DNA of 64,000 bases from Alphaproteobacteria bacterium (GCA_963667785.2 CAXXMU010000001.1:864001-928000); one strand, 5' to 3'; shown: positions 13,359 to 64,000, numbered from the stretch's first letter. The notes: generated by a model from the letters alone, not told the origin. Made by a program: numbers and translations.

Positions 13359-16010
13359 ATGCTGGACAAGACCTACCGGCCTGCCGATTTCGAGGGCCGT
13401 CTCTACGATCTGTGGGAGCGGAGCGGCAGCTTCGCCGGGCGCCCCGGTGGCGGCGCGCCGTGGTGCGTGATGATGCCGCCGCCCAACGTCACCGGCAGCC
13501 TGCACATGGGCCACGCCCTCAACAACACGCTGCAGGACGTGCTCACCCGCTATCGGCGGAAGACCGGCCGCGACGCGCTCTGGCAGCCGGGCATGGACCA
13601 TGCCGGTATCGCGACGCAGATGGTGGTCGAGCGTCAGCTTGCCGCAGACGGCACGGACCGGCGCGCCCTCGGCCGTGAGGCCTTCATCGACCGCGTCTGG
13701 GACTGGAAGGCGGAATCGGGCGGTGCCATCGGGCGCCAGCTCCGTCGCCTCGGCGCCTCTCCCGACTGGGCGCGCGAGCGCTTCACCATGGACGAGGGCC
13801 TGAGCCGCGCGGTGCTCGAGGTCTTCGTCACCCTCTACCGCCAGGGCCTCATCTATCGCGACAAGCGCCTGGTCAACTGGGACCCGGTGCTGGGCACCGC
13901 GATCTCCGACCTGGAGGTGGAGCAGCGCGAGATGGCGGACGGCAAGCTCTGGCACGTCCGCTACCCGCTGGAGGGCCGACCGGGCGAGCACGTCGTCGTC
14001 GCGACCACGCGGCCCGAGACGATGCTCGGCGATACGGCCGTCGCCGTGCACCCGGAAGACGAGCGCTATCGCCGCCTCATCGGCAGCCGCGCGGTGCTGC
14101 CGCTGGTCGGCCGCTATCTGCCCATCGTCGCCGACGACTATGCCGACCCGGCGCAGGGCTCGGGCGCGGTGAAGATCACGCCCGCGCACGACTTCAACGA
14201 TTTTGAGGTCGGCCGGCGGCACGGCCTGGAAATCGTCAACGTGTTCGATGCCGAGGCCCGGATCAACGAGAACGCACCCGAGGCCTACCGTGGCCTCGAC
14301 CGGATGGAGGCGCGCGCGCGCGTGCTCGCCGATCTCGAGGCCGAGGGGCTGATCGAGAGGGTCGAGCCACATCTTCACACCGTGCCCCACGGCGACCGCT
14401 CGGGTGCGGTGATCGAGCCGTGGCTCACCGACCAGTGGTACGTCGACGCCGAGACGCTCGCGAGGCCCGCGATCGAGGCCGTCGAGACGGGCCGCATCCG
14501 CTTCGTGCCCGCGCGCTGGGAGAGCACTTATTTCGAGTGGATGCGCAACATCCAGCCCTGGTGCATCTCGCGTCAGCTCTGGTGGGGTCATCGGATTCCG
14601 GCCTGGTACGGCCCAGACGGCCATGTCTTCGTCGCCGTCTCCGAGGCCGAGGCCGAGGAACAGGCCGCGCAGCATTACGGCCGCGCCGAGCCGCTCACGC
14701 GCGACGAGGACGTGCTGGACACCTGGTTCAGCTCCGGCCTCTGGCCCTTCTCGACCCTCGGCTGGCCGGAGCGCACGGCGGCGCTGGAGACCTACTATCC
14801 CAACAGCGACCTGATCACCGGCTTCGACATCATCTTCTTCTGGGTGGCCCGGATGGTGATGCTCGGCATGCACTTCATGGGCGATGTCCCCTTCCGCACC
14901 GTCTACATCCACGCGCTGGTGCGGGACGAGAAGGGGCAGAAGATGTCCAAGAGCAAGGGCAACGTGATCGACCCGCTCGCGCTCATCGACGAGTACGGCG
15001 CCGATGCGCTCCGCTTCACCCTGGCGGCGATGGAGGCGCAGGGGCGCGACATCAAGCTCGCCGAGAGCCGCGTCGCGGGCTATCGCAACTTCGCCACCAA
15101 GCTGTGGAACGCCGCGCGTTTCTGCGAGGCCAACGGGTGTGCGCCGGATCCCGACTTCGATCCGGCGACGTGCCGCGACCGCGTGAACCGCTGGATCGTC
15201 GGTGAGGCCGCCGCCGCCGCCCGCGCCGTGACCGATGCCCTCGACGCCTACCGCTTCGACGCGGCCGCCGGCGCGGTCTACCACTTCACCTGGGATGTCT
15301 TCTGCGACTGGTACCTGGAGTTCTCGAAGCCGGTGCTGGCGGGCGCCGACGGGCCGGCCAAGGCGGAGACCCGGGCCACGGCCGCCTGGGTGCTGGATAC
15401 GATCCTGGGCCTCCTCCATCCCTTCATGCCCTTCGTCACCGAAGAGCTCTGGGGCCGGATCGACGAGGCGCGGGAGGGCACTCTGGTCACGGCGCCCTGG
15501 CCGGCGCCGGACGAGGGCATCGGCGACGCGGACGCGACCCGGGAGATGGACTGGGTGGTGCGGCTCGTCAAGGCCGTGCGCGCCGTACGCGCGGAGATGA
15601 ACGTGCCGGCGGGTGCGCGCATCGCGCTCGGGCTCCGCGGTTCCGCGCCGGAGACGGCGGCGCGCCTGGAGCGCCACGGCGCGGTCATCGCGCGCCTCGC
15701 TCGGCTCAGCGACGCCGAGGCGCTGGAGGGCGAGGTGCCGCCGGGCTCGGTGCAGATGATGCTGGACGAGGCGACAATCGTGCTGCCGCTCGCCGGCGTC
15801 ATCGAGTTCGACAAGGAGCGCGCAAGGCTCGACCGGGAGCTGGGCAAGGTCGGCAAGGAGATGGCGGCGCTGGAGCGCAAGCTCGACAACGAGAAGTTCC
15901 TCGCTCGGGCGCCGGCCCACGTGGTCGAGGAGCAGCGCGGGCGTCTCGACGAGGCGCGCAGGGCGCAGGCCCGGCTGGAGGCCGCGCTGGAGCGAATCGC
16001 GGCATCGTGA
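13359..16010 (+). CDS. valS: Valine--tRNA ligase
   Basis: [31 protein letters not shown]-terminal coiled coil. Confidence 0.98.
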
Positions 16011-16110
16011 ACCCGCCGGGGCGACGTTCGCCGCTTGACCGCAGCCCACCCCACGAGTAAGCCCATCGCGCCGCCGCGAGAGGGTGGGCGGTGCGAGGGA
16101 GAAGGGCGCC

Positions 16111-17832
16111 ATGAGCACGAGATTCGACAAGTCGAAGCTGCCGAGCAGGCACATCACCGAAGGCGCGAAGAGCGCGGCGCACAGGTCGTTCTTCTATGCC
16201 ATGGGCGTCTCCCGCCAGGCGATGAGCCGGCCGATCGTGGGCGTGGCGACAACCTGGAACGAGACCGCGCCCTGCAACATCACGCTGCGCCGCCAGGCGC
16301 AGGCGGCGAAGACCGGCGTCGACGAGTCCGGCGGCACGCCGCGCGAGTTCACCACGATCACCGTGACCGACGGCATCGCCATGGGCCATCAGGGCATGAA
16401 GTCGTCGCTCGTCTCGCGCGACGTGATCGCGGATTCGGTCGAGCTCACCATGCGCGGCCACTCCTACGACGCGCTGGTGGGGATCGCCGGCTGCGACAAG
16501 TCGCTGCCGGGGATGATGATGGCGCTCGTGCGGCTCAACGTGCCAGGCGTCTTCCTCTATGGCGGCTCGATCCTGCCGGGGCGCTTCCGCGGCCGCGACG
16601 TCACGGTGATGGACGTCTACGAGTATTACGGCAAGCTCAACGAGGGCGAGGTCACGGAAGAAGACCTCGCCGAGATCGAGGCGGTGGCGTGCCCCTCCGG
16701 CGGCTCCTGCGGCGGCCAGTTCACCGCCAACACCATGGCCTGCGTTTCCGAGGCGATCGGGCTGGCGCTGCCGCATTCGGCAGGCGCGCCGGCGGTCTAC
16801 GAGTCCCGCGACGAGTTCGCCGTGGCCTCCGGCAACTGCGTCATGGACCTGCTCGAAAACAACATCCGCCCGCGCGACATCGTCACCCGCAAGGCGATGG
16901 AGAACGCGGCGACCGTGGTGGCGGCCACCGGCGGCTCCACCAATGCCGGGCTGCATCTGCCCGCGATCGCGAACGAGGCGGGGATCGACTTCGACCTCGC
17001 GGCGGTCGCCGAGGTGTTCAAGCGCACGCCCTATATCGCCGATCTCAAGCCCGGCGGCCGCTACGTGGCGAAGGACCTGTTCGAGGCGGGCGGCGTGCCG
17101 ATCGTGCTCAAGGCGCTGCTCGAAGGCGGCTATCTGCACGGCGACTGCCTGACCGTGACCGGCAGGACGCTTGCCGAGAACCTCGCCGACGTGGCGTTCC
17201 CCACCGGGCAGGACGTGGTGGTGCCGACGTCTGCGCCGCTCTCGCCCACCGGCGGCGTGGTGGGGCTCAGCGGCAATCTCGCGCCGGAAGGAGCGATCGT
17301 GAAGGTGGCCGGCCTCACCCGGCTCCGCCATGTCGGGCCCGCGCGCTGCTTCGATACCGAGGAGGAGGCGATGAAGGCCGTCGTCAGCCGCGACTACCGC
17401 TCCGGCGACGTGATCGTCATCCGCTACGAGGGGCCCAAGGGCGGCCCCGGCATGCGCGAGATGCTGGCCGTCACCTCGCAGATCTACGGCCAGGGCAAGG
17501 GCGAGGAGGTCGCGCTCATCACCGACGGCCGCTTCTCCGGCGCGACGCGGGGCTTCTGCATCGGCCATGTCGGGCCCGAGGCGGCGGTGGGCGGCCCCAT
17601 CGCCCTGCTCCGCGACGGCGACGAGGTGACCATCGACGCGACCAGCGGCGAGCTCAGCGTCGCGCTCTCGGACGCCGAGCTGGCGGAGCGCCGCAAGGGC
17701 TGGGCGCCGCGCTCGACCGACTATCGGGCGGGCGTGCTCTGGAAGTACGCCGCCACTGTCGGCCCCGCCTACCAGGGCGCGGTGACGCATCCCGGCGGCG
17801 CGGCGGAAACCCACTGCTTCGCGGACCTGTGA
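16111..17832 (+). CDS. ilvD: Dihydroxy-acid dehydratase
   Basis: PCN, GCDKS, GGSCGGQFTANTM, GGSTN, GPKGGPGMREM, TDGRFSG. Confidence 0.96.
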   Translation: MSTRFDKSKLPSRHITEGAKSAAHRSFFYAMGVSRQAMSRPIVGVATTWNETAPCNITLRRQAQAAKTGVDESGGTPREFTTITVTDGIAMGHQGMKSSLVSRDVIADSVELTMRGHSYDALVGIAGCDKSLPGMMMALVRLNVPGVFLYGGSILPGRFRGRDVTVMDVYEYYGKLNEGEVTEEDLAEIEAVACPSGGSCGGQFTANTMACVSEAIGLALPHSAGAPAVYESRDEFAVASGNCVMDLLENNIRPRDIVTRKAMENAATVVAATGGSTNAGLHLPAIANEAGIDFDLAAVAEVFKRTPYIADLKPGGRYVAKDLFEAGGVPIVLKALLEGGYLHGDCLTVTGRTLAENLADVAFPTGQDVVVPTSAPLSPTGGVVGLSGNLAPEGAIVKVAGLTRLRHVGPARCFDTEEEAMKAVVSRDYRSGDVIVIRYEGPKGGPGMREMLAVTSQIYGQGKGEEVALITDGRFSGATRGFCIGHVGPEAAVGGPIALLRDGDEVTIDATSGELSVALSDAELAERRKGWAPRSTDYRAGVLWKYAATVGPAYQGAVTHPGGAAETHCFADL

Positions 17833-17848
17833 CCGAGCACCCTCTTGG

Positions 17849-17939
17849 CGTCATGGCCGGGCTTGTCCCGGCCATCCACGGGTTGTTCGCGAAATAGAGA
17901 GAAAGAACGTGGATGCTCGGAACGAGTCCGGGCATGACG
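17849..17939. repeat. Palindromic REP-like element (alphaproteobacterial GTCATG..CC..ATCCAC type)
   Basis: Arms CGTCATGGCCGGGCTTGTCCCGGCCATCCACG (17849-17880) and CGTGGATGCTCGGAACGAGTCCGGGCATGACG (17908-17939) form an imperfect inverted repeat between ilvD and metC. Confidence 0.85.
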
Positions 17940-17988
17940 GTGGAAGGACTGGTTTTCCGATGCGAATGTCCGTGACGGGCACTAGACC

Positions 17989-19200
17989 ATGACCAAGGAA
18001 AGCGGCAGGAAAGGCCGCTACCGGGACGAGACGCTGCTCTCGGTGCTCGGCCGCGACCCGGCCGCGAACCACGGCGTCGTCAACCCGCCCGTCTATCACG
18101 CGTCGACGATCCTTCACGAGACCGCGGCGGCGCTGAAGGAAGCCACCTTCGGCCCGCGCGAGTACGGCAAGACCTACTACGGGCGCTACGGCACGCCGAC
18201 GACCTTCCCGCTGCAGGACTCCATCGCCGCCCTCGAGCGGGGTCATCGCACCTACCTGTTCGGCTCCGGCAAGGCGGCGATCGTGGCGTCGCTGCTCGCC
18301 TTCGTGAAGAGCGGCGACCACGTGCTGATGACCGACAGCGCCTATGGCCCGACGCGCGCCCTCGCGCGGGGGCTGCTCGCCCGCATGGGGGTGGAGACCA
18401 CCTTCTACGACCCCTGCATCGGCGCCGGCATCGCCGCCCTGATGCAGCCCAACACCAGCGTGGTGGTGGGCGAATCGCCGGGCTCGATCACCTTCGAGAT
18501 CCAGGACTTTCCGGCGCTCGCGGCTGCCGCGCACGAGCGGGGCGCCGTGTTGATCGTGGACAACACCTGGGCCTCGCCGCTGTTCTGTCAGCCTCTTGCT
18601 CTCGGCGCGGACGTCTCGATCCAGGCCTGCACCAAGTACGTCGTGGGCCACTCGGACGCCATGCTCGGCGCGGTCACCACCACCGAGGCCCATGTCGAGG
18701 CGCTGCGCCGCGTCTTCGAGGAGCTCGGCGCGGCGCCCGGACCCGACGACTGCTACCTGGGCCTGCGCGGCCTGCGCACGCTTTCCGTCCGCCTGCACCG
18801 GCACCAGGAGACGGGGCTCAGGCTCGCCCGCTGGCTGCAGGGCCGCCCCGAGGTGAGCCGGGTGCTCCATCCCGCGCTGGAGGACGATCCCGGTCACGCG
18901 CTCTGGAAGCGCGACTTCTCCGGCGCCTCCAGCCTCTTCGGCGCGGTGCTGGAGCCGGTGCCGGAGCCTGCCGTCGACGCCTTCCTCGATTCGCTCGCGC
19001 TCTTCGGCCTCGGCTATTCCTGGGGCGGCTACGAGAGCCTGGCGCTGCCGACCTATCCCTGGAAGCTGCGCGATGCGACGCGCTGGGATCCGGCGTGCCC
19101 GCTGCTCCGCATCTATGCTGGCCTCGAGGATGCCGACGACCTCATCGCCGATCTCGCGCAGGGGTTCGAGCGCATGGCCGAGGCACGCTCGGCGGAATAG
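17989..19200 (+). CDS. metC: Cystathionine beta-lyase
   Basis: VNPPVYHASTI, YGRYGTPT, DNTWASPL, TKYVVGHSD (PLP Lys), GYSWGGYESL. Confidence 0.93.
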   Translation: MTKESGRKGRYRDETLLSVLGRDPAANHGVVNPPVYHASTILHETAAALKEATFGPREYGKTYYGRYGTPTTFPLQDSIAALERGHRTYLFGSGKAAIVASLLAFVKSGDHVLMTDSAYGPTRALARGLLARMGVETTFYDPCIGAGIAALMQPNTSVVVGESPGSITFEIQDFPALAAAAHERGAVLIVDNTWASPLFCQPLALGADVSIQACTKYVVGHSDAMLGAVTTTEAHVEALRRVFEELGAAPGPDDCYLGLRGLRTLSVRLHRHQETGLRLARWLQGRPEVSRVLHPALEDDPGHALWKRDFSGASSLFGAVLEPVPEPAVDAFLDSLALFGLGYSWGGYESLALPTYPWKLRDATRWDPACPLLRIYAGLEDADDLIADLAQGFERMAEARSAE

Positions 19201-52714: not shown

Positions 52715-52899
52715 CGGCCTTCTTCCAGGACGTCCTGCCGGCCCTGCGTCCCCGGCTCGGGGGCCGGGGCAGGCGCCGGGGCGTCCTTCCGTCCCTTTCC
52801 GGATCGGCAGCAAGGAGGCCGCCATGGCTAGCCGCGACTTCGCGAAGAAACGGCGGCGCAATCTCGAACGCTTCCACCAGCGCACCGAGGAGCGCCGCG

Positions 52900-53123
52900 C
52901 CGCCGACCGCGCCCGCACCGTCCACCTGCCGCCGATGGCGGTGGAGCTGTTGGAAGCGTTGCCGCGCGAGGGCAGTACCTGGGTGTTCCCGGGCAACAAC
53001 CGGGACGGGCGCTACACCGGCGGCGGCCTCGACCATGTCTGGCAGACCGTCCGCGCCAGGGCCGGACTGGAAGACGTCCGGCTGCACGACCTCCGCCACT
53101 CTTTGTGCGGCGTAATCTCCTAG
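52900..53123 (+). pseudogene. Tyrosine recombinase fragment (central catalytic region, ends at HDLRHS)
   Basis: RTVHLPPMAVELL..WVFPG..VWQTVRARAGLEDVRLHDLRHS then premature stop. Confidence 0.85.
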
Positions 53124-53615: not shown

Positions 53616-54203
53616 TGATCCCCGCCTCCAGGCTCGGAGACGCCGCGACAATCCCGTTCCGCAGGCAGTAGGGCTGGTTCGGCGCGCAACGCGTGTCCTC
53701 CCTGAGCTTCCCGGCGCTAAAGCCGCTTCGCGCCGAACGCTCCGGCCCAGGCCCCGGTGTCGAACACGCCCGAGGCCTCCTCGTGGCCGCCGCCGTGGAG
53801 CTTTCCGACCGGATGAGCGTTGCCAGCCGTGCCGGAGATGAAACGCCCGTCGGTCGGCTCCGTGCCGGTCCACCTGAGCAACCCGTCCCCGCGCCCCCCA
53901 CTGGCGTCGCCGCCGCCCCGCTGGAACCGGAATTCGAACTCTCCCGCTTCCCGCCGGATTCCCAATCCACCGAAGCGCCATGGCTGGACCGTCCGCCGAA
54001 AAAGCCCGGGGCCCGCTACGCCCCCGGCGCCATGCGCCAAGACGTTCAGCCGAGCCCGGCCTCGGGATCCGCAAAGGCAGGGCCTGAGGGTTTGCCATTC
54101 AACAGGCCAGCCGACGCTCAGCATCGGCGATTATCGGAACAAACGCCGAGGAAACACCAAGACGCGACCACATCGCGCATTCTGTCCCCCTTTGAAAAGA
54201 CAC

Positions 54204-55634
54204 CTACTCGTCAGACTCATTGAGAGCCAGCCGATCACGAAGTACCCGATTCTCCATTGCCATGGATCTAATTCGACCAACATCCATTCCTGTAAGTCGC
54301 AGGAAATGGAGATGAAACAGGGCGTCCAGTCTAAGACAAATACCATACATCTTACTGTCACCAATGCCCCTTGCCCTGCGCTCTACTCTCTTGTCATAGT
54401 GTGTCAAATAGTTCCTCATGTCAACTATGTCTTGCACCAGAGACTTTATTTCATTTGTCGTTCCAAACAGATCCTCAAAGGGCTCAATCAGTCGCTTTAT
54501 TCTCTTTCGCAAAGAAATCTCGTTCGCGTACTTCAGTCTGGACTCCATGAAATTTCTTCTCTCGGGCGGCACTAATTCGATAGTGGTTGCACGCAACCAC
54601 TCAAAGTCGTTCAAATTCATTTCAGTTTCGTCAGAGGTTCTTCTATGAAGAGTTTCTAGAGCCTGTACAAGTGACAGGAAGACGCCATTCAAATTCCTGT
54701 GGGCACCAATTTTAGAAGATAGGTACAAATCAAACGCTGGATATATAGTTTCGTAGTCGGCCAACCATCTCACGATCGTTTTTCCGATATCACCAGAGAT
54801 ATCATTGTATCCAAAAGTCTTGGAGATGCGTGTATCCGGTTGTTGATCTTGCAGTTGACTGTGATAGAAAATACTCGTCACAACCTCCCGATCCCATTTA
54901 TCCAGCTTGTTACTTGAATAACCCTTTACCCATTCTATCGCCACAATCTTGTTCATCACCAAGCAAAGGAAAGTGTGTATCCGGTGTAACATCACGAAAC
55001 AGCGTTCAACGGGGAGCAGCCCCTTCGACGTTAGAGAAACATGCATACGCTGAGAAATCGTGGATGACAGATGAGATACCTTGTAGTCGGGAAGAGAAAA
55101 TGAAGGCGAGAATACGAACTGGAGTCGAATTCCCTCTGGCAAGGCTATAGAAATGTCATCCGGCTGCGTGTAATGAATCGCCCACTCTGCCTTTTCGGAA
55201 TCCGAGTTTAACTTTGGACGAAATCCGGAGATTGAAAACCATTCGTTGAGATTCTCCAACGAAAACTCTATCCGTGAGAACGCAATTGGTTCGTCTTCGA
55301 CAAATGAAGCTCCAACGAACGCCGCGCCAACATGAAATCTCGATTCAGACACATACCCTTCGATAATTCGCACGAAATAGAAGGGATCGTCTACAGCTAC
55401 GCATTTCTCCAAAGTTACCGGGTCATTATCGACTATACCCAAAATACGTTGGGTTTCTTTGCCAAAGGGACTGTTACTTTGAAGCTGTTGGGGATCAACG
55501 GCGGTAGGTCGATGGACTAGTCTCAGCGTTATTTCGCCTGATGTCGAGATACGTAGAGTTCCGGGATAGTGCTGGCCCGGATGGCTTGGAAGCCAAAAGA
55601 ATCCGGGTTTGTCGATGGGATCGGACAGTCGCAT
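54204..55634 (-). CDS. ApeA-like HEPN protein (ApeA N-terminal domain + HEPN RNase)
   Basis: N-terminal GFFWLP..YPGTL, C-terminal FLSLVQALE.LHR and RNYLTH (RxxxxH). Confidence 0.82.
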   Translation of the reverse strand: MRLSDPIDKPGFFWLPSHPGQHYPGTLRISTSGEITLRLVHRPTAVDPQQLQSNSPFGKETQRILGIVDNDPVTLEKCVAVDDPFYFVRIIEGYVSESRFHVGAAFVGASFVEDEPIAFSRIEFSLENLNEWFSISGFRPKLNSDSEKAEWAIHYTQPDDISIALPEGIRLQFVFSPSFSLPDYKVSHLSSTISQRMHVSLTSKGLLPVERCFVMLHRIHTFLCLVMNKIVAIEWVKGYSSNKLDKWDREVVTSIFYHSQLQDQQPDTRISKTFGYNDISGDIGKTIVRWLADYETIYPAFDLYLSSKIGAHRNLNGVFLSLVQALETLHRRTSDETEMNLNDFEWLRATTIELVPPERRNFMESRLKYANEISLRKRIKRLIEPFEDLFGTTNEIKSLVQDIVDMRNYLTHYDKRVERRARGIGDSKMYGICLRLDALFHLHFLRLTGMDVGRIRSMAMENRVLRDRLALNESDE

Positions 55635-56000
55635 TGTCAGCCCTTGCTATGGCGTCATTTTTTGGAATGATGTGAGCGAGCCCGGTTCAGCCGTTCGATC
55701 CGAGGATCTGTTTTGATTTCGAAACAGCTGTCCCCGGTTTGGTAGCACCCAAGGGATAGCCGTGTGTAAGCCCTGTCAAGCGGAGCTGAGGTGTTACCAC
55801 TCCAACCGGAGCGCTTCGGCGGGTACTTCGGTCTCTGGGATGCATCACGCTTTATCGGCACTGCCCGAGGACCGATGCTCACCGCAATCGTGACGGACCA
55901 TTCCGGTGCCCTGTCCCCAGCCACTCTGAGGCGCTTCGGTGCCGGCCACCTCACTCATAGAAATCGCTACATCGTACCCGGGGACACCGACATGGCTACC

Positions 56001-56324
56001 TCAAATCGCCGCCGCGGCTTGGCTGTCGGGTCTCACGTCAACGTGTACCGTGACCCGCAGATTGCTGTCGAGCGCCGCAAGCATTTTCATCAGCCGGTCG
56101 AGCGTGAAGCGCCCGAGGTCCGCGTTCCGAATCCGCGAGAAATCCGCAGCGGCGAAACGGGTCAGCGCGGCGGCCTTGCGGACCGACAGACCGCGGTCGT
56201 CGAGCACCCTGATGATGCGGGCCGCCACCACCGCCTTGGCTTGCTTTAGGTCCGCGTCGGAATCGCCGATGTCGCGGAAAACGTTGCCGCTGCCCCCAAC
56301 CAACTCGAATTTGCTCTCGCTCAT
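56001..56324 (-). CDS. XRE/HTH antitoxin (HigA-like)
   Basis: GSGNVFRDIG, GLSVRKAAALT..ADFSRIRNADLGRFTLDRL; ATGA overlap with toxin stop. Confidence 0.9.
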   Translation of the reverse strand: MSESKFELVGGSGNVFRDIGDSDADLKQAKAVVAARIIRVLDDRGLSVRKAAALTRFAAADFSRIRNADLGRFTLDRLMKMLAALDSNLRVTVHVDVRPDSQAAAAI

Positions 56325-56671
56325 GGCATCGTCTCCCTCCTCAGCCGCGCCAGCCGGCCCCGGACCAGATCGATCTCGGCCTTCGGCGTCCCGATTCCCG
56401 TCTTCGACTTCTTCCGGAACGCATGGATCACCCAGAGCCGGCCCGCCAGCTCCGTCACGTAGACCACCCGCCAAGCGTCCGTACGATAGGGGACGGCATT
56501 CTGCATGACGCCCGGCCCGAGACCCTTCAGCGGTTTCGCGATGTCCGCCTTGCCGCCCTCCGCCCCGATCGTGAGCGCCGTGCCGATCCGATCCCGCACC
56601 GTTGTGGGGAACGACTCGAACGTCTTCCGCGCTGCCTTGACCCAACCGACAGGCCTTGTGTCAAGGTTCAT
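56321..56671 (-). CDS. RelE/ParE superfamily toxin (Gp49/HigB-like)
   Basis: FESFP, AKPLKGLGPGV, DAWRVVY, VIHAFRKKSKTGI.TPKAEIDLVR.RL. Confidence 0.9.
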   Translation of the reverse strand: MNLDTRPVGWVKAARKTFESFPTTVRDRIGTALTIGAEGGKADIAKPLKGLGPGVMQNAVPYRTDAWRVVYVTELAGRLWVIHAFRKKSKTGIGTPKAEIDLVRGRLARLRRETMP

Positions 56672-56677
56672 GGAGTA

Positions 56678-56707
56678 TGTTGTCAGTGGTGACTACACCT
56701 GTCAACA
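56678..56707 (-). promoter_or_regulatory. TA operon promoter/operator: TTGACA -35 within an imperfect inverted repeat
   Basis: TGTTGTCAG (56678-86)...CTGTCAACA (56699-707), one mismatch; TTGACA on - strand at 56705-56700. Confidence 0.55.
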
Positions 56708-56718
56708 GGCCGGACGAT

Positions 56719-56901
56719 GGATTGCGGCATTCGTATGCTTCGATGGCGCTGGCCCTCGGCGAGAGGCTCACGATGATCGGGAAGTTGCTCGGTCACACGC
56801 AGGTGCAGACGACCGCCCGGTATGCCGATCTGGCGCGGGACTCGATCCAAAACGCGGCTGCCCGGATCACCGGGAGCATCGGTGGGGACCTCACCCCTTA
56901 G
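56719..56901 (+). pseudogene. Tyrosine recombinase C-terminal fragment
   Basis: LRHSYASMAL..IGKLLGHTQVQTTARYA (catalytic His and Tyr); no N-terminal part. Confidence 0.88.
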
Positions 56902-57384
56902 CATGGTTGATGATCGTCGCGCGCATCACGCTACGGCCTTGCTCGGACGGCGCACGCCCGGCGGTCTCGACCACCAGCTCTCTGAACTCACCGCCTCCCA
57001 TGCCGGTACCGCAAAAGTACGAGTTCTCATGTCTGACCGACATCGATTGCATTTCCAGATCAACATTTTCTATGCTGCGACATCCTAAATCGCACGCTAT
57101 CCTCCAACATGGCGACAATATTTGTAGACATTACCGAAGATACGAAGAACATTGAGAGAAACAACGACACAATTAGTAGGACTAGTCAAATATATCTCAA
57201 CTATACTCTTGTCTACGATGGGGTATTCTATCTTTTTTATTTTGAATTGTTACATAAATACTGAAATATGTGATTCTATTTTTGTATTTCGGCAATCTAT
57301 GCGTGATATTCTCAAATAATATTGGCGCTTGCTCATCCTCTGCTTTCTGCTATGGTAGGCCTACGATACAGCAGGAGATCTCTC

Positions 57385-57567
57385 ATGACCATCCAAGTGC
57401 AGGACCAGCCGGTCGAGCATTCAGAGGACATTCGCTCTGCCATCCTACAGGATCAGCCGGATAATCCGGCACTCCAGCGTCTGAAGGGGCGCCTGTTGGC
57501 CGACTCCGAGGCGAGCGAAGTCATCACCAGCTATGACCGCATGCACCACCGGCACAGCCGCTCGTGA
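57385..57567 (+). CDS. RiPP precursor peptide, YhhA-type triceptide (cyclophane) precursor, 60 aa
   Basis: AGGAG RBS at 57373-77; acidic leader with PALQRL helix; core ITSYDRMHHRHSRS; 10 nt upstream of an rSAM/SPASM gene. Confidence 0.88.
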   Translation: MTIQVQDQPVEHSEDIRSAILQDQPDNPALQRLKGRLLADSEASEVITSYDRMHHRHSRS

Positions 57568-57577
57568 GTTTCCTCGC

Positions 57578-59713
57578 GTGGCCGCCCCCAGGATCACCTC
57601 ATACCTGGTAAAGGTGGCCTCGCGATGCAACTTGGACTGTGATTACTGTTACGTCTATCATCATGCAGACCAGAGTTGGCGCTCTATGCCGCGACTCTTG
57701 TCTTCGGAGTACCGTGACGCCTTTGTCGCGCGCCTCGCAGAGTATGTTGGAGAAACAGGCCTGTCTCGTGTGTCGGTGGTATTCCACGGAGGCGAGCCGC
57801 TCCTAGCCGGACCACAATGTCTGGCTGATTTTTCAGAAGCAATTCGCGCATGTGTCGAAGCAAAAGTCGACATCGGCGTACAAACCAATGGCCTTCTTCT
57901 AAGCGACTCGGCACTCGACGTCTTCGAGCATGCGGACATTGCCGTATCGCTTAGTTTGGACGGCCCTCGCGCGGCTAATGACAAGCATCGGAACACTCGT
58001 AAGGGCCGATCGAGCTTCAACAGAGTTCTGGCTGCCCTCCAACGTCTAAAGAAACGTCCGGGTATATTTGCTGGCATTATAGCCGTTATAGATGTTTCTA
58101 CTCCTCCGCGAGACTTGTTTGAGTTTTTTGACGAGCACAAACCTCCCAAGCTCGATTTTCTGCTGCCCGATGCACACAATTTGTGTCCTCCTCCGGGTCG
58201 CGATTCTGAACCAGCCACATACGAACAATGGCTAGTCAGTGCATTCGACCTGTGGCTCGATCAGTACTCCCACATTCCCGTACGAACATTTGAATCTCTT
58301 CTGGATTCGGTGTCCGGCCTGGCATCTCACACTGACGCTTTCGGACTTGGAGATGTCAGCCTCATTTCAGTTGAGACGGATGGGAGCTATCACGATCTCG
58401 ACGTCCTGAAGGTCACCCGGGAGGGAGCTACTAAACTTGCCGGTACGGTGCTCGATACTTCAATCGCGACAGTCGCTGCCTCGGACGCTGTCGCGGCTCA
58501 TCGGAAAAGACTTCAAAAGGAAGGCCTTTGCCGCCAGTGTCAAGAGTGTCCGGTGATGCAAGTCTGTGGCGGTGGCTCTCTTCCACATCGGTTTGGTCCG
58601 AACGGATTCGATCACCCCACTGTCTACTGTCGGGAAATGCTTGCACTCATCACACATGTGCGCGCCCGGCTAGATGGAATGTTGCGGAAGTCGTATCCCT
58701 CACCTGTTCTCCGCGCTCCTAGTGTTGACTTAGCCGAATTCGAGCTTGCTGAAACCGCAGCTGGGATCATACAGGAGCTATACAAAAGTGCTCAAGACCA
58801 GGCGCATTTGTCATTCATCAACACGCTTCGAACGCTCGACTCCCAAGATCAAGCGATACACGCCTCGGTAAAGTCCGTTCTGGATTCGCCACCCGATTTC
58901 ATCACCAGATTGGCAACACACCCCGGCGCTATAGCCTGGCAACGGACCATGGCAGCGCAAATGGCCGGGAAAACCGCCCATACGGTGGATGGGTCACCGG
59001 TGCAGGCCGACTGCTCCTATATCCGCTTCCTTCTTAAGCACCCACCCTCCGATCACAATCTCAGTATCGCTGAGGACGACCCATGGCTTCGCGCTCCCTT
59101 TGGCGATGCCATCTACTTCGAAACGGAGGAAGTCGCCGCCAACGGACGAGCAGTCGTCGAACAGGCATTCCAAATAATTGACCGCTGGCGTCCCGCTCTT
59201 GGACAGGAGATGCGCATTGCCTCTAAGGCTGTCCAATTCGTTCGTGACCCGCTCGCCAATCCAAAGAAGATCGTGTCATTCAGCGACAATTCAGTTCCCG
59301 GTGCGCTCTATGTTTCGATTATGCAGGACGGAAGCTTGATTGACTCATATGATCTAGCCGATTCATTACTCCACGAGCATCGACACCAAAAGCTCTACCT
59401 TCTCGAACGGCAAAACCCTACAGTTGAGCCGACTTCCTTATTGGTTCCGTCGCCTTGGCGGGAAGACCCACGGCCGCCCTCGGGTCTACTGCATGCGATG
59501 TTCGTCTTCGTGGAGCTGCGGCGCTTTTGGAGTTTCGTTCACGATCAAGGTCCAGCCCGGCTCCACAACCGCGCTGCCAATCAGCTTCGTGATACCAATG
59601 CGCACCTTGCGCAAGCTTTTGCCACGCTTGAAAATTGTCCACTCACTCAGACTGGAGGCCAACTCGTGGAAGTTCTCAAATCGGCGTTCGCCGCCAACAA
59701 TCTAGCGGCCTGA
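57578..59713 (+). CDS. Cyclophane-forming radical SAM/SPASM maturase (YhhB/FxsB-like) fused to a C-terminal HExxH domain
   Basis: KVASRCNLDCDYCYVY (CxxxCxxC), FHGGEPLL, QTNG, SLDG; SPASM CQECPVMQVCGGG..TVYC; LLHEHRHQKL and SPWREDPRP..LLHA. Confidence 0.9.
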   Translation: MAAPRITSYLVKVASRCNLDCDYCYVYHHADQSWRSMPRLLSSEYRDAFVARLAEYVGETGLSRVSVVFHGGEPLLAGPQCLADFSEAIRACVEAKVDIGVQTNGLLLSDSALDVFEHADIAVSLSLDGPRAANDKHRNTRKGRSSFNRVLAALQRLKKRPGIFAGIIAVIDVSTPPRDLFEFFDEHKPPKLDFLLPDAHNLCPPPGRDSEPATYEQWLVSAFDLWLDQYSHIPVRTFESLLDSVSGLASHTDAFGLGDVSLISVETDGSYHDLDVLKVTREGATKLAGTVLDTSIATVAASDAVAAHRKRLQKEGLCRQCQECPVMQVCGGGSLPHRFGPNGFDHPTVYCREMLALITHVRARLDGMLRKSYPSPVLRAPSVDLAEFELAETAAGIIQELYKSAQDQAHLSFINTLRTLDSQDQAIHASVKSVLDSPPDFITRLATHPGAIAWQRTMAAQMAGKTAHTVDGSPVQADCSYIRFLLKHPPSDHNLSIAEDDPWLRAPFGDAIYFETEEVAANGRAVVEQAFQIIDRWRPALGQEMRIASKAVQFVRDPLANPKKIVSFSDNSVPGALYVSIMQDGSLIDSYDLADSLLHEHRHQKLYLLERQNPTVEPTSLLVPSPWREDPRPPSGLLHAMFVFVELRRFWSFVHDQGPARLHNRAANQLRDTNAHLAQAFATLENCPLTQTGGQLVEVLKSAFAANNLAA

Positions 59714-59717
59714 ACAC

Positions 59718-60716
59718 TTGATCGTACTCCCCGTCGACTCCCTCCCATCCGCACCTGCCGACCAGCACGGGGCTTTGAGGAACTACTTTTGCGACAAGGA
59801 CGCACGAGCAAAGCGAACAAAGGACGGCTGGGAACTGACCCTAGCTTGGTCCGATGATCTTGATCGTCATGTCGATCCGAAGCTCCCAATTGGCCTCAGC
59901 TGGTGGAGCAATGGCATCACGCCCGCGGATATGGTACTAGCCATCCGCCCTTCTGGACGACTACTCACTTCCCTTTACGATACTTGGGCACTGTATGGCT
60001 GGAGTGAATGGCTTGCAGGCCAGACCACTCCAGACGCTTCCACGGTAGTCATTCTTCACGTCGATGATCATAGAGATCTCGACCCTCCGAGATTGTTCAT
60101 TGAAAACTCTCACCTTCGGGATCCTTTGACAGGCCGCAGTGTAGAACTTGACAACCCCGACAGCATTCGAAGTGCAATCCTGAGCGGCGCTGTAGGAATG
60201 GGAAGCTTCATGACACCATTTCTCCACGCAGTACCAAACGCTGAGGTGCGGCACCTTTGCCAACCTCCGAAAGCTTCGAGAACTCGCACCTACCAAATTC
60301 AAACACACGATATAGCCGATTCTCTTATCGATAAAGACGCACGCAGACCGGCAGTCTATCTCCATGAGAAAGTCGACGTTGTTGGACCCGGTACATATAG
60401 AGTAACACCCGATGTTGAAGAATGGTTGAGCGACATTGGGTCGGCCCCAATCCTACTTCACATTGACATGGACTTTTTCAACAACCGATATGATGGTGAC
60501 AGTGATTGGCGAGAGCGGGACAGTAATCTTGATCCACCTCTACAGGAAATTCTAGCCAAGATTGACAAATTGACCACCGCTTTGGAGGATAATGAGATTG
60601 CGTCGCGCATTGAACATATAGCAGTTGCATTCTCACCAGGCTTCTTTCCGGCCGAGCACTGGAGTACAGCTGCGGATCGCCTATTGCCGGCCTTAGAGCG
60701 ATTACATGGCAGCTAA
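59718..60716 (+). CDS. Ureohydrolase/arginase-fold metallohydrolase (UPF0489-like; candidate peptide arginase)
   Basis: ILHVDDHRDL (DxHxD) and LLHIDMDFF (DxD), AFSPGF; TTG 4 nt after the rSAM stop. Confidence 0.7.
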   Translation: MIVLPVDSLPSAPADQHGALRNYFCDKDARAKRTKDGWELTLAWSDDLDRHVDPKLPIGLSWWSNGITPADMVLAIRPSGRLLTSLYDTWALYGWSEWLAGQTTPDASTVVILHVDDHRDLDPPRLFIENSHLRDPLTGRSVELDNPDSIRSAILSGAVGMGSFMTPFLHAVPNAEVRHLCQPPKASRTRTYQIQTHDIADSLIDKDARRPAVYLHEKVDVVGPGTYRVTPDVEEWLSDIGSAPILLHIDMDFFNNRYDGDSDWRERDSNLDPPLQEILAKIDKLTTALEDNEIASRIEHIAVAFSPGFFPAEHWSTAADRLLPALERLHGS

Positions 60717-61176
60717 GCGCTCTTCAAAGTCGAGCAGGCGCCGGAGGCCCGTACGGCCCACGCCGAAGCCGCCCCCCACAACTGCGAAGTCTAAGGAAGG
60801 CCCCATCTCTCCCGAAGATGTCCTCCTCAAGCGGACCCGGGGAACACCGGGCCGAGGAGACGGACCAGGTGGCGAGAAGTGGCGAGTCGAGGCTGCAGGC
60901 CAACGCGCCGGTCACGTCTACGTCAACGTCATAGACGAACCTCCAATTGGCACGCACGCTTCTATTCAAATTTTTCTGAACAAGAAGAGCCAAGGTCGCC
61001 AAATTGGTCGCGTCGCCTATCGGGCAGCCTGTGAAGAGAGTCAGCATGACACCATCTATGCCCACATGAGCAGGTCCAACCACGCCTCGCGTCGCGCCGC
61101 CGAGGAGGCTGGATTCGTGGACGTAACTCCAACGGGCCACGCACAGCTCATCATGCGCCGATCTCGCCAATTGTGA
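60706..61176 (+). CDS. GNAT family N-acetyltransferase (RimJ/RimL-like) with basic N-terminal tail
   Basis: SQGRQIG acetyl-CoA motif A, SNHASRRAAEEAGF; overlaps upstream gene by 11 nt. Confidence 0.75.
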   Translation: MAAKRSSKSSRRRRPVRPTPKPPPTTAKSKEGPISPEDVLLKRTRGTPGRGDGPGGEKWRVEAAGQRAGHVYVNVIDEPPIGTHASIQIFLNKKSQGRQIGRVAYRAACEESQHDTIYAHMSRSNHASRRAAEEAGFVDVTPTGHAQLIMRRSRQL

Positions 61177-61763
61177 ATCAGCACGCCACGCTGCCACCTT
61201 GGCTAAAGCCCTCGGCCCATACCGACATCCTTCATGTGGCTGCGAAGATACGCCCCGCACTTCGCACCGAGCTTACTATCCCAGTTTCACACAATGTTGT
61301 CCGTGCCTGGATGCGGCACTTAGGATGGTACACAGCTATCGACGGTGACGACTTCATCGTCGTATCACCCTCCCCCAGACTGGCTCGCATGATTCTTGCC
61401 ATAGATCGTGACGTCACTCCTCACACTTTTCGGCTGGGCCATGCACTTGGCTACCCAACTTGCTGCTGTCGTGCAGCCGCAGGCGTTGGAGAGCAAAATC
61501 TTGACACTTGGGCGCTTGAATTATCTCGACGACGCTTCATTGGGCGCTTCAAGCTCATTGATCCGACCCGCTATAGAGATGGAAACGCGCTAATCAGCCA
61601 TATCCCCTGCTCAACCTTCTGTCACGCTTCGCTTCAGATTGCCGAAGCCACACTCGCGGCTCTGCGTAGATCCAATTCACCATTGCCGGTCTTGCGTGCT
61701 CCGGCACTGAGAGCCTTCACTTCTAGCCTATTGCGACGAGACTTGACGCGTACCCATGCATGA
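61173..61763 (+). CDS. DUF483-like Cys-motif protein
   Basis: LGHALGYPTCCC and SHIPCSTFCHAS; GTGA overlap with GNAT stop. Confidence 0.6.
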   Translation: MNQHATLPPWLKPSAHTDILHVAAKIRPALRTELTIPVSHNVVRAWMRHLGWYTAIDGDDFIVVSPSPRLARMILAIDRDVTPHTFRLGHALGYPTCCCRAAAGVGEQNLDTWALELSRRRFIGRFKLIDPTRYRDGNALISHIPCSTFCHASLQIAEATLAALRRSNSPLPVLRAPALRAFTSSLLRRDLTRTHA

Positions 61764-61788
61764 CGATGTGGACGCTGAGGCGCGCGAA

Positions 61789-63804
61789 TTAGAACCCGAG
61801 TTCCTTCTTTAGAACTTCAACTGTCTCCGTCACAGCGAGAACTTCATCCCTCGCAGCCCTTGCCGCCTCTACGAGCTCGGTAAGCTCCGCATCTGGCACA
61901 CCGCGTTGATATGCCTCTTCCACACGAAAAAATAATCGCTTCGCTTCCCCTAGATACTCCAAAGCCTCTTTCTTACGACCCTTATCAACTAACCAATTCC
62001 CAAAATCACGGCAGGCTTGGGCCAAATGATGATGACCGCCGATAGCCTCCGACGTTCCCAAGTCAGACCAGACACCACCTATTGCTCGACGACTTTCTTG
62101 AACCGCTTCCGAGAAAGCGGCCTCACCTTTCTCGGCATTGGCGCGCATCAACAAGAGCGCGCCTCGTAGGTCGAGTATTCTCGACCCATGAACGGATTGT
62201 GCGGTGAAATCGTGCGCAGCAAGGAGTTCATTAATAGCTTCTATGGCGGGTTCTCTATCCCCTTGTGAACCTGCCTCTATGGCGGCCGCCGCCAAATCGC
62301 GTGTACAATGTATCCAGGTATCACCATTGCGATCAAGTGTTGCCAACGCGCTCGAATACGCCTTGATTGCGCCATCCCACCGAACACTGCGCCCTTTCGC
62401 TTTCTCGGCCAGAGTAGCTAGGGTCTGCCCAAATCGCCAATATCCTTCACCGTCTGAACTAACCATTCGCAAATACCAATCCCACAGTCTCGCTGCCTCC
62501 TTCAATCGTGCTGAGGATTTCGCCTGAGCAGCCGCGCTCGGAGAGGACGCATCACGGTCACCCAGACGTTGAAGTGCTATAGCACGAATACGTGCGGCCT
62601 CCGCGAACCGCTTGGCCAATGCAGGCGACACTTGATCCAGAACCGCGACATCGTCGCCTGCCAGGATCAGACCCGCAGCGTGTTCAATAAGTGCTTGCGA
62701 GCCCTTCTTGCCATGATCGCTATCCTTGAAGGCGTCTATTGCTCGGCGATAGCCCTTCATCGCAAGCTCAATTTCAGGGCTAGGTTTGTTATCAACGACG
62801 GCCGCGTGTCTGGCTTCCAGTGGAGACACCGGCTGCGCTATCCACGCGGGATGAAATTCAAGAGCTCGAGTTAATGTTGCAAAAAACACGTCTGCGTCTT
62901 GGCCAAGTATATAGAACTTGTTCGGTCCTGAAAGCAGCCGTCTGACCTCACTTCTTGTAATCGAATAATCGTTCTCGTGAAATATCCAATAAATTACCAA
63001 ATTCGGAAACTCTTCAGACGCATCAAACAGAAGCTCCATCACACCATCTTCGCCTCCGGCGTACCCGACTACGACTAAGAATCCTGTATCCTTTAGCATC
63101 CCGAACATTGCGCCTCTCATGGACAATGTCCGTCCTGCCGCTAGCATTGCTTGCCGGCTGTTGAGTGGGCTGTACGCATGTAACGAGCCATGCAGATGTA
63201 CTACTTGCGGCATCGCAGGGCGAGAAGATATCCGCTTTAGGGCTTCAAGACCATCCGCGATCACTGGAACATGACCGGCGAGAAGAATACCTTCCAGAAT
63301 GAGGCGATCGAAATTTGTGGTAAGTACGCTATGCACATAATGCTGTACAACAAGTTCTCCCAAACAAATATGGGCCCAATTGATCTTTCCAGACGCCTTT
63401 GCGACACTCCTTTGAATGATTTCACGTTGCTGCGGGTCCGAACGGATGTGCTTCTCAAATATTTCCGAGTAGTAGTCTGACCAAGTTGCTCCTTTCCTAT
63501 CAGTCAAGTGATTCTTTTCCTTAAGCCACTTGAGCGCACTCATTGCATCGACAGAGGTTGCTCTTGTGCCTGAATATTGTCGATACAGGGATATTGCACA
63601 TTCCTGAGCGATTTCACTGGCCAGAGGAACTCCGGCGCTTGCCGAGCACCCCGCACCGATCAGAAACACCGCGCCTCCACAATTCGGATCGTCTGGAATT
63701 TCCGAAACCTGTGGCCAGATCGACGTGCGTTTCAGCAACTTGAGTTGGTTAGCCAATTCGTCGATGTCGGCCTCTCTCGCCAATTTGCCGGTATAATCAG
63801 CCAT
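61789..63804 (-). CDS. SIR2-family (SIR2_2) NADase-like domain + C-terminal helical/TPR-like repeats
   Basis: FLIGAGCSASAGVP, VLTTNFD, VHLHGS, LVVVGYAG; Ala-rich helical C-terminal half. Confidence 0.85.
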   Translation of the reverse strand: MADYTGKLAREADIDELANQLKLLKRTSIWPQVSEIPDDPNCGGAVFLIGAGCSASAGVPLASEIAQECAISLYRQYSGTRATSVDAMSALKWLKEKNHLTDRKGATWSDYYSEIFEKHIRSDPQQREIIQRSVAKASGKINWAHICLGELVVQHYVHSVLTTNFDRLILEGILLAGHVPVIADGLEALKRISSRPAMPQVVHLHGSLHAYSPLNSRQAMLAAGRTLSMRGAMFGMLKDTGFLVVVGYAGGEDGVMELLFDASEEFPNLVIYWIFHENDYSITRSEVRRLLSGPNKFYILGQDADVFFATLTRALEFHPAWIAQPVSPLEARHAAVVDNKPSPEIELAMKGYRRAIDAFKDSDHGKKGSQALIEHAAGLILAGDDVAVLDQVSPALAKRFAEAARIRAIALQRLGDRDASSPSAAAQAKSSARLKEAARLWDWYLRMVSSDGEGYWRFGQTLATLAEKAKGRSVRWDGAIKAYSSALATLDRNGDTWIHCTRDLAAAAIEAGSQGDREPAIEAINELLAAHDFTAQSVHGSRILDLRGALLLMRANAEKGEAAFSEAVQESRRAIGGVWSDLGTSEAIGGHHHLAQACRDFGNWLVDKGRKKEALEYLGEAKRLFFRVEEAYQRGVPDAELTELVEAARAARDEVLAVTETVEVLKKELGF

Positions 63805-64000
63805 TACTTCCTTTGATCTCCGCCAGAGTTACCCCACTTATCGACCTATCTCGCAATTAGGCAAGAAAATACTTCGGTCATTCCCAGCGTCCCCGTTCAT
63901 TGAAGCTATACCTTGAGACACCACACACGATCTCTTTGCCTCATAGGCTCTCCGGCATCCAGACCGGTAGCCGTGCGTCCGTCAACCCCGCAGATCTCTG

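Follow-up and report, generated by a model that had tools for sequence, protein, structure and literature searches.

We examined a stretch of 64,000 nucleotides (GCA_963667785.2 CAXXMU010000001.1:864001-928000, hereafter the window) from an Alphaproteobacteria bacterium. Positions 57,344-63,989 of the window are a 6.6-kb mobile module, which is conserved in a metagenome contig, L084 (related loci are designated by L numbers). The module consists of an operon for a triceptide, which is a peptide made on ribosomes and modified after translation (RiPP), and a convergent gene for a SIR2-TPR protein. The operon, on the plus strand, encodes the precursor YhhA (57385-57567), a maturase in which a YhhB-type radical S-adenosylmethionine (SAM)/SPASM enzyme is fused to an alpha-ketoglutarate (aKG)-HExxH domain (57578-59713), a distant peptide-arginase-like metallohydrolase (orf7, 59718-60716), a GNAT acyl/acetyltransferase (60706-61176), and a Cys/His-rich DUF483-like protein (orf9, 61173-61763). 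The SIR2-TPR gene (61789-63804) is on the minus strand, with 25 nt between its stop codon and that of the operon.

The likely start codon of yhhA is ATG at 57385, which has GGAG 9 nt upstream and gives a protein of 60 residues; the open frame extends back to TTG at 57322. YhhA matched NF041705 (6e-16; 58.3 bits vs a cut-off of 36). Its core, ITSYDRMHHRHSRS, contains three aromatic-X-Arg motifs (YDR, HHR, and HSR), all in the final 12 residues. Among 51 sequences, I47, T48, S49, Y50, D51, R52, H57, and R59 were invariant, and the core, near-invariant in 52 loci, spans Alpha-, Beta-, and Gammaproteobacteria and one planctomycete. The maturase scored 489.4 bits against the YhhB model NF041707 (cut-off 445) and matched TIGR04269 at 1e-154. 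It contains the CX3CX2C radical SAM motif as CNLDCDYC and, on the same polypeptide, the aKG-HExxH domain (TIGR04267, 1e-38, residues 542-714; motif HEHRH). The probable start of yhhB is GTG at 57578, within an open frame from ATG at 57533; homologues align from about query residue 16, and the RefSeq yhhB genes begin 12-16 nt after yhhA.

As judged from the encoded proteins, the operon is of a known RiPP type, that of the YhhA/YhhB and ChlB-like triceptide families. As in the YhhA/YhhB/YhhC system (Sugiyama et al., JACS 2022, as described in parts of the citing papers PMC11002830 and PMC12186529), both the precursor and the radical SAM/SPASM maturase score above the cut-offs of the NCBIfam equivalog models, Tyr-X-Arg and His-X-Arg motifs occur in the core, and the predicted first ring has Asp at the position where YhhC produces erythro-beta-hydroxy-Asp (PMC12186529). 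According to PMC11002830, the links formed by YhhB are C3(Tyr)-Cbeta(Arg) and C2(His)-Cbeta(Arg). Unlike in that system, the aKG-HExxH domain is fused to YhhB here, and the separate YhhC 2-oxoglutarate-Fe(II) oxygenase is missing (no NF041706 match among the operon proteins of the window). The operon also adds three or four tailoring genes, and the defence-island setting and the SIR2-TPR/PtuAB partners described below further distinguish it from the known system, as the citing papers present it. The role of YhhC may fall to the fused HExxH domain. Among the related loci, a true YhhC oxygenase is present in L044 and L068.

The same two-domain layout, radical SAM plus aKG-HExxH, is found in ChlB-type enzymes (Morishita et al., Nat Chem 2024, as cited in the consulted part of PMC12636437); the likeness is one of described domain architecture, and those enzymes have another host group and another precursor. 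In the published activity, the fused enzyme forms the cyclophanes and then beta-hydroxylates Asp and His (PMC12636437). By the published YhhB and ChlB chemistry, the maturase in the window would close three three-residue cyclophanes, on Y-D-R, H-H-R, and H-S-R, and would beta-hydroxylate Asp and His residues.

The structural model of orf7 had a predicted local distance difference test score of 93. Its top Foldseek match in the PDB was the peptide arginase OspR (8brp), followed by agmatinases. The match to 8brp (E 1e-9, probability 1.0, template modeling score 0.5, root-mean-square deviation 7.9) is one of overall fold. H114, D116, H118, D120, H248, D250, and D252 of orf7 were invariant in 36 sequences. 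The protein falls outside the peptide-arginase family models (OspR/FlmR; pfam12640), with no Pfam match at E 0.01 and 23.7 bits vs 350 for NF052474. Because it is below the sequence thresholds for arginases, we call orf7 arginase-like and not a family member. The GNAT gene (Pfam Acetyltransf_1/3, 2e-5) is directly 3' of orf7, and the two are fused as one open reading frame (ORF) in L025 (3331-4812) and as one annotated protein of 447 residues in Rhizobium tumorigenes pRt1078. The acyltransferase of the landornamide and selidamide pathways is also a GNAT. As here, an arginase-fold enzyme is beside, or sometimes fused with, a GNAT near an Arg-rich RiPP precursor. The pathways provide a precedent for conversion of Arg to ornithine (by the peptide arginase OspR) followed by acylation (consulted part of PMC12703449). 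Unlike their enzymes, orf7 is under the peptide-arginase thresholds, and all three core Arg residues here are predicted ring residues. From the fold and the gene fusions, orf7 possibly turns ring Arg into ornithine, which the GNAT would then acylate. In two Pseudomonas loci, the GNAT and a small methyltransferase-like protein are fused as one ORF (L020, 13121-14311; L023, 13076-14356).

In orf9, H84, C97, C98, D111, H143, C146, and C150 were invariant in 19 sequences. The nearest ESM Atlas clusters bear DUF483 (score 0.93), and Foldseek gave nothing in the PDB at E 0.001. In a wide VIA-align comparison, the best rows for orf9, namely 2guk (Z 7.3; no assigned function) and NleE (Z 5.2), were both too weak to name a fold.

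Relatives of the maturase were searched for in one genome per species; 122 were found, and the best 80 were kept. In 52 of these 80 loci, a YhhA-type precursor is beside a fused YhhB, and these 52 and the window make up the 53 loci (cassettes) considered below. All 52 related loci have orf7, and 50 have the GNAT, the two exceptions ending at a contig edge; orf9 was detected by tblastn in 27. A GT2 glycosyltransferase gene is added in 40 of the 53 loci and is replaced by a small methyltransferase-like gene in seven; the window and its own genome have no GT2. In other respects the flanks are unrelated, their 761 called ORFs falling into about 640 clusters, and thus the cassette is self-contained and mobile. 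Large plasmids also carry it. Between the window and L084, the identity by blastn is 81.5% over 6527 nt. L002, the closest genomic relative, matches the module in two blocks, with an insertion of 2.5 kb between the operon and the SIR2-TPR gene. This insertion (14155-16645) has ORFs of 188, 445, and 53 residues with no Pfam or PADLOC family, and a group II intron reverse transcriptase gene is located upstream of yhhA in L002.

Some of the loci have other peptide-related neighbours. In L115 (R. tumorigenes pRt1078), hxsB, hxsC, and hxsA of the His-Xaa-Ser system, another enigmatic radical SAM peptide system, are at 14655-18017, 0.8 kb downstream of the Yhh cassette. In L057 (3611-14543), which is a distant verrucomicrobial cassette, a LanM lanthipeptide synthetase is encoded alongside, as is a response regulator. 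L073 (15030-19620) is an unfused sphingomonad YhhABC cluster with two S9 peptidase genes just downstream.

The SIR2-TPR protein matched Pfam PF13289 SIR2_2 (29.2 bits vs 24.5) and PADLOC Aga_SIR2 (2e-28), and its best PADLOC matches are SIR2 proteins associated with prokaryotic Argonaute (pAgo). The GAGCS, TTNFD, and HLHGS motifs, which we take to be the catalytic motifs of the SIR2 domain, were invariant in seven sequences. A SIR2 domain with conserved motifs of this kind is shared with the NAD+-consuming SIR2 defence effectors (ThsA, DSR, and SIR2-APAZ). Five of the 53 loci (the window, L002, L003, L016, and L021) have a SIR2-TPR gene no more than 2.5 kb from the cassette, and from locus to locus its orientation to the cassette varies between convergent, divergent, and tandem. 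We found no full-length relative of SIR2-TPR when 400 other genomes of the class were searched; one match (9e-22) covered the SIR2 domain only. A metagenome scan with a SIR2-TPR alignment gave 21 relatives. Four of them (L084, L085, L086, and L090) have at least 38% identity, and a YhhB-like gene is adjacent in all four. The remaining 17 match in the SIR2 domain only, at 27-31% identity, and none of them has a YhhB-like neighbour. The cassette and the SIR2-TPR gene also form one DNA block, as the alignments with L084 (81.5% over 6.5 kb) and L002 show. SIR2-TPR is a specific, though optional, partner of the operon family.

Two other kinds of partner were found. In L004, L013, L030, and L034, the genes directly upstream are a PtuA/PtuB pair (PtuAB) with the same orientation as the cassette, and such pairs are also beside the unfused YhhABC-HExxH clusters of L068 and L073. 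These PtuA proteins are 32-67% identical, a divergence about equal to that of the YhhB proteins. When 300 other Sphingomonadales genomes were searched for the PtuA subfamily, two relatives were found at E <=1e-40, and each is within 3 kb of a YhhB-like radical SAM gene and an HExxH gene. A DUF4062-TPR gene is divergently upstream in five sphingomonad loci, and a search of 300 other genomes of the order gave no full-length relative of its product. A quick YhhB tree was built from 55 rows, with L032 and L059 left out because the match contains a stop codon; this tree requires three or more changes of the SIR2-TPR label. Sister cassettes differ in partner: L015 has DUF4062-TPR and L021 has SIR2-TPR, and L004, with PtuAB, is in the same tight clade. 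L085, a metagenome contig of 3.5 kb, carries a PtuB-like gene, SIR2-TPR, and a YhhB-like HExxH gene of which just the 3' end is present; because it carries both, both partner types are possible at one locus.

We rejected two ideas about these partners. A shared peptide-binding module of SIR2-TPR and DUF4062-TPR was considered, and the helical parts had no specific similarity (BLASTP E 0.12). A parallel with the actinobacterial Fxs clusters, which have the proteins 'TIR-like FxsC' and 'FxSxx TPR protein', was dropped, as neither was found at E 1e-10 in the scanned actinobacterial loci.

For the wider neighbourhood of the 53 loci, flank proteins were clustered, which gave 407 cluster representatives within 5 kb; the nearest 300, up to 3,555 bp away, were scanned with PADLOC, and the results are matches to single hidden Markov models. 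The Pfam scan covered 137 proteins, namely 133 of the nearest 150 representatives and four cassette proteins; 17 representatives were left out, which already had a strong PADLOC or NCBIfam match or were shorter than 95 residues. A strong PADLOC family was present within 3.5 kb at 22 of the 53 loci, and a strong or weak one at 32. When just the families matched over most of the profile were counted, the number was 18. Mobile-element or toxin-antitoxin (TA) markers were found within the same distance at 23 loci, and any PADLOC, mobile, or TA marker at 45.

At least 12 system types were represented, including Septu PtuA/PtuB, Shango SngABC, short pAgo with a restriction endonuclease (REase)-APAZ protein, and long pAgo with Helical-REase; IetA/IetS, Shedu, Tiamat, PifA, AbiE, PDC-S06/S11, ApeA, and SIR2-TPR were also found near cassettes. 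IetA/IetS (AAA ATPase and S8 protease) genes are 0.3-5 kb from the cassette, on either side, in L007, L022, L041, L042, and L059, and in L041 and L042 they are co-directional and follow the GT2 gene. Three RefSeq-annotated plasmids have similar neighbours: Piwi, SMEK, and integrases on the first; Fic and ParDE on the second; and an AAA ATPase and HNH pair together with DEAD helicase, JAB, and ThiF proteins on the third.

As a control, the flanks of 20 other loci of the same search were scanned up to 3.5 kb from the radical SAM gene, which covered 126 proteins (FxsB-type actinobacterial loci, two from Saccharibacteria, and one unfused sphingomonad locus). Two of the 20 loci gave clear matches (Shedu at L070 and DpdF at L071), and two gave doubtful ones (a Ser/Thr kinase and a PolA-like protein). 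By the one-sided Fisher test, the difference was significant for 22/53 vs 2/20 (p 0.0085) and for 18/53 vs 2/20 (p 0.035). In the consulted part of the study of lanthiphages, a RiPP cluster family, 4.7% is given as the baseline for a random gene and 26.6% for the lanthiphages, both within +/-23 genes of defence systems (Shomar et al., bioRxiv 2024.06.26.600839).

Neither an ABC or MFS exporter nor a RiPP-type peptidase recurred in the flanks of the 53 loci, by clustering and by the scan of 137 proteins. Metal-uptake or TonB genes did not recur among the nearest neighbours either, and for this reason the idea that the peptide is a metallophore was dropped.

From the genomic context we suggest, with roughly even confidence, that the cationic peptide, whose sequence is nearly invariant, has its role within the producing cell, in an anti-phage system of the abortive-infection type that works with SIR2-TPR. 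The sequence-only reading had already interpreted the operon as a possible anti-phage RiPP system, in which the peptide of a RiPP operon with no exporter or peptidase gene stays in the cell and acts as a signal, a guard, or an inhibitor. Parts of that reading hold. Enrichment of defence genes around homologous operons, which had been set beforehand as a check, was found (22 of 53 loci vs 2, at most 4, of 20 controls, and vs the published baseline). The SIR2 gene proved to be tied to the operon, by its occurrence at 5 of 53 cassettes and beside all four close metagenomic relatives and by the lack of full-length relatives in 400 genomes. No exporter or peptidase gene is conserved just beyond the island either; a DUF2201 gene past the window end does not recur. 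Other points are unsupported or weaker. The RiPP is not an unknown one, as described above, and the neighbouring ApeA and TA genes are not part of the conserved module (see below). The peptidase gene is absent, and its absence proves little. Enzymes with the aKG-HExxH domain and other aKG enzymes can cleave RiPP backbones, and such clusters lack proteases, according to the consulted parts of PMC12636437 and PMC12912966; thus, the missing peptidase is weak evidence. A better argument is the lack of an exporter, which holds for every one of the 53 loci.

The partners suggest how such a system might work. The helical TPR part of SIR2-TPR would bind the peptide or its precursor and so gate the NAD+-consuming SIR2 domain, a proposal that we make only tentatively. 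In other lineages, PtuAB or DUF4062-TPR would take the place of SIR2-TPR, as retrons restrain PtuAB. The tri-cyclophane peptide would then be a ligand, or a restraining 'antitoxin', for the interchangeable effectors SIR2-TPR, PtuAB, and DUF4062-TPR; we regard this generalization as speculative and rather doubtful, and the restraint of an effector by the peptide is drawn purely by analogy. If true, the module would represent a new class of abortive infection, in which a RiPP made by a radical SAM enzyme plays the role of retron multicopy single-stranded DNA (msDNA) or of CBASS cyclic nucleotides.

Several points weigh against an anti-phage role. The genes were called with our own rough caller before the flank proteins were clustered. 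In the control, the distance was taken from the radical SAM gene and not from the cluster ends, and the loci are from other phyla. When the doubtful control matches are counted, the difference is not significant (22/53 vs 4/20, p 0.07; 18/53 vs 4/20, p 0.19). The loci are not independent of one another (L041/L042, L008/L010, and the Septu-linked sphingomonads), and 21 of the 53 have no PADLOC match within 3.5 kb. Just 14 of the 53 cassettes have SIR2-TPR, PtuAB, or DUF4062-TPR nearby, and most stand alone; the samples for the reverse linkage are small (4 for SIR2-TPR and 2 for PtuA). No match to the cassette was found in 50,697 phage records or in IMG/VR. In addition, a protease-resistant, near-invariant peptide fits a cofactor-like or signalling role too, and the LanM beside L057 and the S9 peptidases near L073 look like the settings of an ordinary natural product.

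These last settings and the loci with no PADLOC match are consistent with another explanation, in which the operon is an ordinary triceptide natural-product cluster (for an antibiotic, a metal binder, or a signal) on plasmids, integrative and conjugative elements (ICEs), or islands that share hot spots with defence genes. The peptide would then be exported, and its leader removed, by general or unlinked functions, and SIR2-TPR and PtuAB would be separate defence genes that are transferred together with the cluster. The presence of the cassette on large plasmids, and of integrases, transposases, conjugation genes, and TA genes near 23 of the 53 loci, suits such a history. Many RiPP clusters lack proteases, according to part of PMC12636437. 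The His/Arg-rich core could also bind metals, as far as its composition indicates; the flanks, as noted, have no recurring metal-uptake genes. The cores of antibiotic RiPPs are usually variable, unlike the near-invariant core here. Exporter genes are not found beside any of the 53 loci, which argues against this explanation. Plain co-transfer also predicts something other than the result of the reverse searches, in which the rare SIR2-TPR and PtuAB subfamilies occurred just beside Yhh-type genes. We consider an ordinary natural product unlikely on balance, and the most probable of the alternatives to a role in defence.

SIR2 enzymes are NAD-dependent deacylases or ADP-ribosyltransferases. Accordingly, SIR2-TPR might be a tailoring or regulatory enzyme, which either ADP-ribosylates the peptide, as MicD does in the case of minviopeptin, or uses NAD+ to remove an acyl group added by the GNAT. 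The GNAT in the operon, the tight linkage with the cassette, and the existence of an ADP-ribosylated triceptide (consulted part of PMC12912966) are in its favour. SIR2-TPR is found at just about 10% of the cassettes, on either strand, and is replaced in sister cassettes by the unrelated PtuAB or DUF4062-TPR. Such replacement fits an effector better than a tailoring enzyme, and the pAgo-associated proteins among its top PADLOC matches also count against tailoring, which seems improbable to us. It is still more improbable that the module is an addiction, inter-element competition, or counter-defence device, in which SIR2-TPR or PtuAB is toxic and is kept in check by the peptide, and a cell that loses the element dies, with no direct anti-phage role: the locations on plasmids, ICEs, and islands, the effector-like partners, and the comparable restraint of PtuAB by retron msDNA (PMC12819146 and PMC12640716, in part) would suit it, and against it stand the lack of a toxic partner near most cassettes and the fact that tripartite toxin-antitoxin systems of this kind, according to the same papers, also serve in practice as defences against phages.

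For a peptide that acts in phage defence, a close published parallel is the lanthiphages (Shomar et al., bioRxiv 2024.06.26.600839, consulted in part), which are likewise a RiPP cluster family enriched in defence islands, with conserved core motifs and extra conserved enzymes of no assigned role. They differ in that they have LanB/LanC class I lanthipeptide enzymes in place of radical SAM enzymes and occur in Actinobacteria only, and in that no dedicated effector-like partner is reported in the sections consulted. Their frequency, 26.6% within +/-23 genes, and that of the present family, 42% within 3.5 kb, were obtained by different methods. Their anti-phage function has been tested experimentally, and the present module is known from sequence alone. 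In Retron-Septu (Ec78/Eco7), as the consulted parts of the literature describe it, PtuA ATPase and PtuB HNH genes are likewise beside, and often co-directional with, the genes for a small non-canonical molecule. Unlike there, the molecule here would be a modified peptide, not msDNA, and the window has SIR2-TPR, not PtuAB.

Neither the YhhA/YhhB RiPP family nor the concept of RiPPs that act against phages is new. In the literature that we searched (supplements, Sugiyama 2022, and Morishita 2024 were outside the search), we found neither a link of this triceptide subfamily to defence islands nor a pairing of SIR2-TPR, PtuAB, or DUF4062-TPR with a triceptide operon. For RiPPs in defence islands, the search gave only the lanthipeptide work and general surveys or reviews, and for cyclophanes with anti-phage activity, one unrelated paper. 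Among the matches listed for Septu or PtuA and radical SAM enzymes, no paper combined the two in a relevant way. Triceptides are a large RiPP class, and a defence role, if true, would assign a biological function to one of its subfamilies. It would also extend peptide-based 'chemical' phage defence from actinobacterial lanthipeptides to the radical SAM peptides of Proteobacteria. The pairing with a rare SIR2-TPR and a PtuAB subfamily provides a concrete hypothesis for the bench, that of a peptide-gated effector, and the 6.6-kb module is small enough to be cloned entire.

The module is part of an island that starts at about position 54,000, continues for some 400 bases beyond the end of the window, and has a G+C content of 45-57%, vs about 70% on either side. 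Upstream of the operon, the island has a gene for ApeA (54204-55634, minus strand), with an N-terminal domain (PF18862 ApeA_NTD1, 6e-35) and a HEPN domain (PF18739 HEPN_Apea, 6e-26), which score 121 bits and 92 bits, respectively, both above the Pfam cut-offs, and with a match to PADLOC PDC-S58 (3e-62). It is followed by a candidate HigA-like antitoxin with HTH_37 (56001-56333, minus strand; Pfam, 2e-18) and a Gp49/HigB-like toxin (56321-56671, minus strand; Pfam Gp49, 4e-12), which make up a type II toxin-antitoxin pair, and then by the C-terminal remnant of a tyrosine recombinase (56656-56901, plus strand), which matches just the final 45 or so residues of the XerC/XerD/integron-integrase profiles. 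The gene inventory and order given in the sequence-only reading (ApeA, toxin/HTH pair, integrase remnant, RiPP operon, and convergent SIR2) were reproduced by the profile scans. ApeA, the TA pair, and the integrase remnant are not part of the conserved module: ApeA, HigB, and the HTH protein are at none of the 52 related loci. The sequence-only reading had also noted that the island has no transporter, peptidase, or immunity membrane gene within the window, and this was borne out. No transporter or peptidase family matched the island proteins in the Pfam and NCBIfam profile scans, and a hydrophobicity scan of ORFs of at least 35 residues found no membrane-protein gene in 56.9-64.5 kb, just two short ORFs inside other genes.

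No tRNA genes were found near the island, nor were att-like direct repeats found flanking it, and a promoter and terminator scan of 56.9-64 kb gave nothing useful above the shuffled background. Past the window end, in DNA of the host G+C content (L001, 1457-17437), there are a gene with a PAPS-reductase domain (a weak BrxP-like match), a weak MoxR-like ATPase gene, a DUF2201 'putative metallopeptidase'/VWA gene, and a gene for a NACHT STAND protein of 1645 residues. The DUF2201 gene is the sole peptidase-like item near the island; it is outside the island, and by flank clustering none of the four genes recurs beside the 52 related operons. This gene group may be a second, older defence-type cluster.

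The ApeA and HigB/HTH segment is bracketed by two tyrosine-recombinase remnants (52824-53123 and 56656-56901). The DNA of the remnants resembles contig C1 of the same genome near 458.9 kb and near 453.3 kb; in the second remnant, the part with this similarity is the DNA at 56746-56891. A single integrase split by insertion of ApeA and the TA pair was ruled out, as the remnants match two different places of the genome; thus, they are from two decayed integrases.

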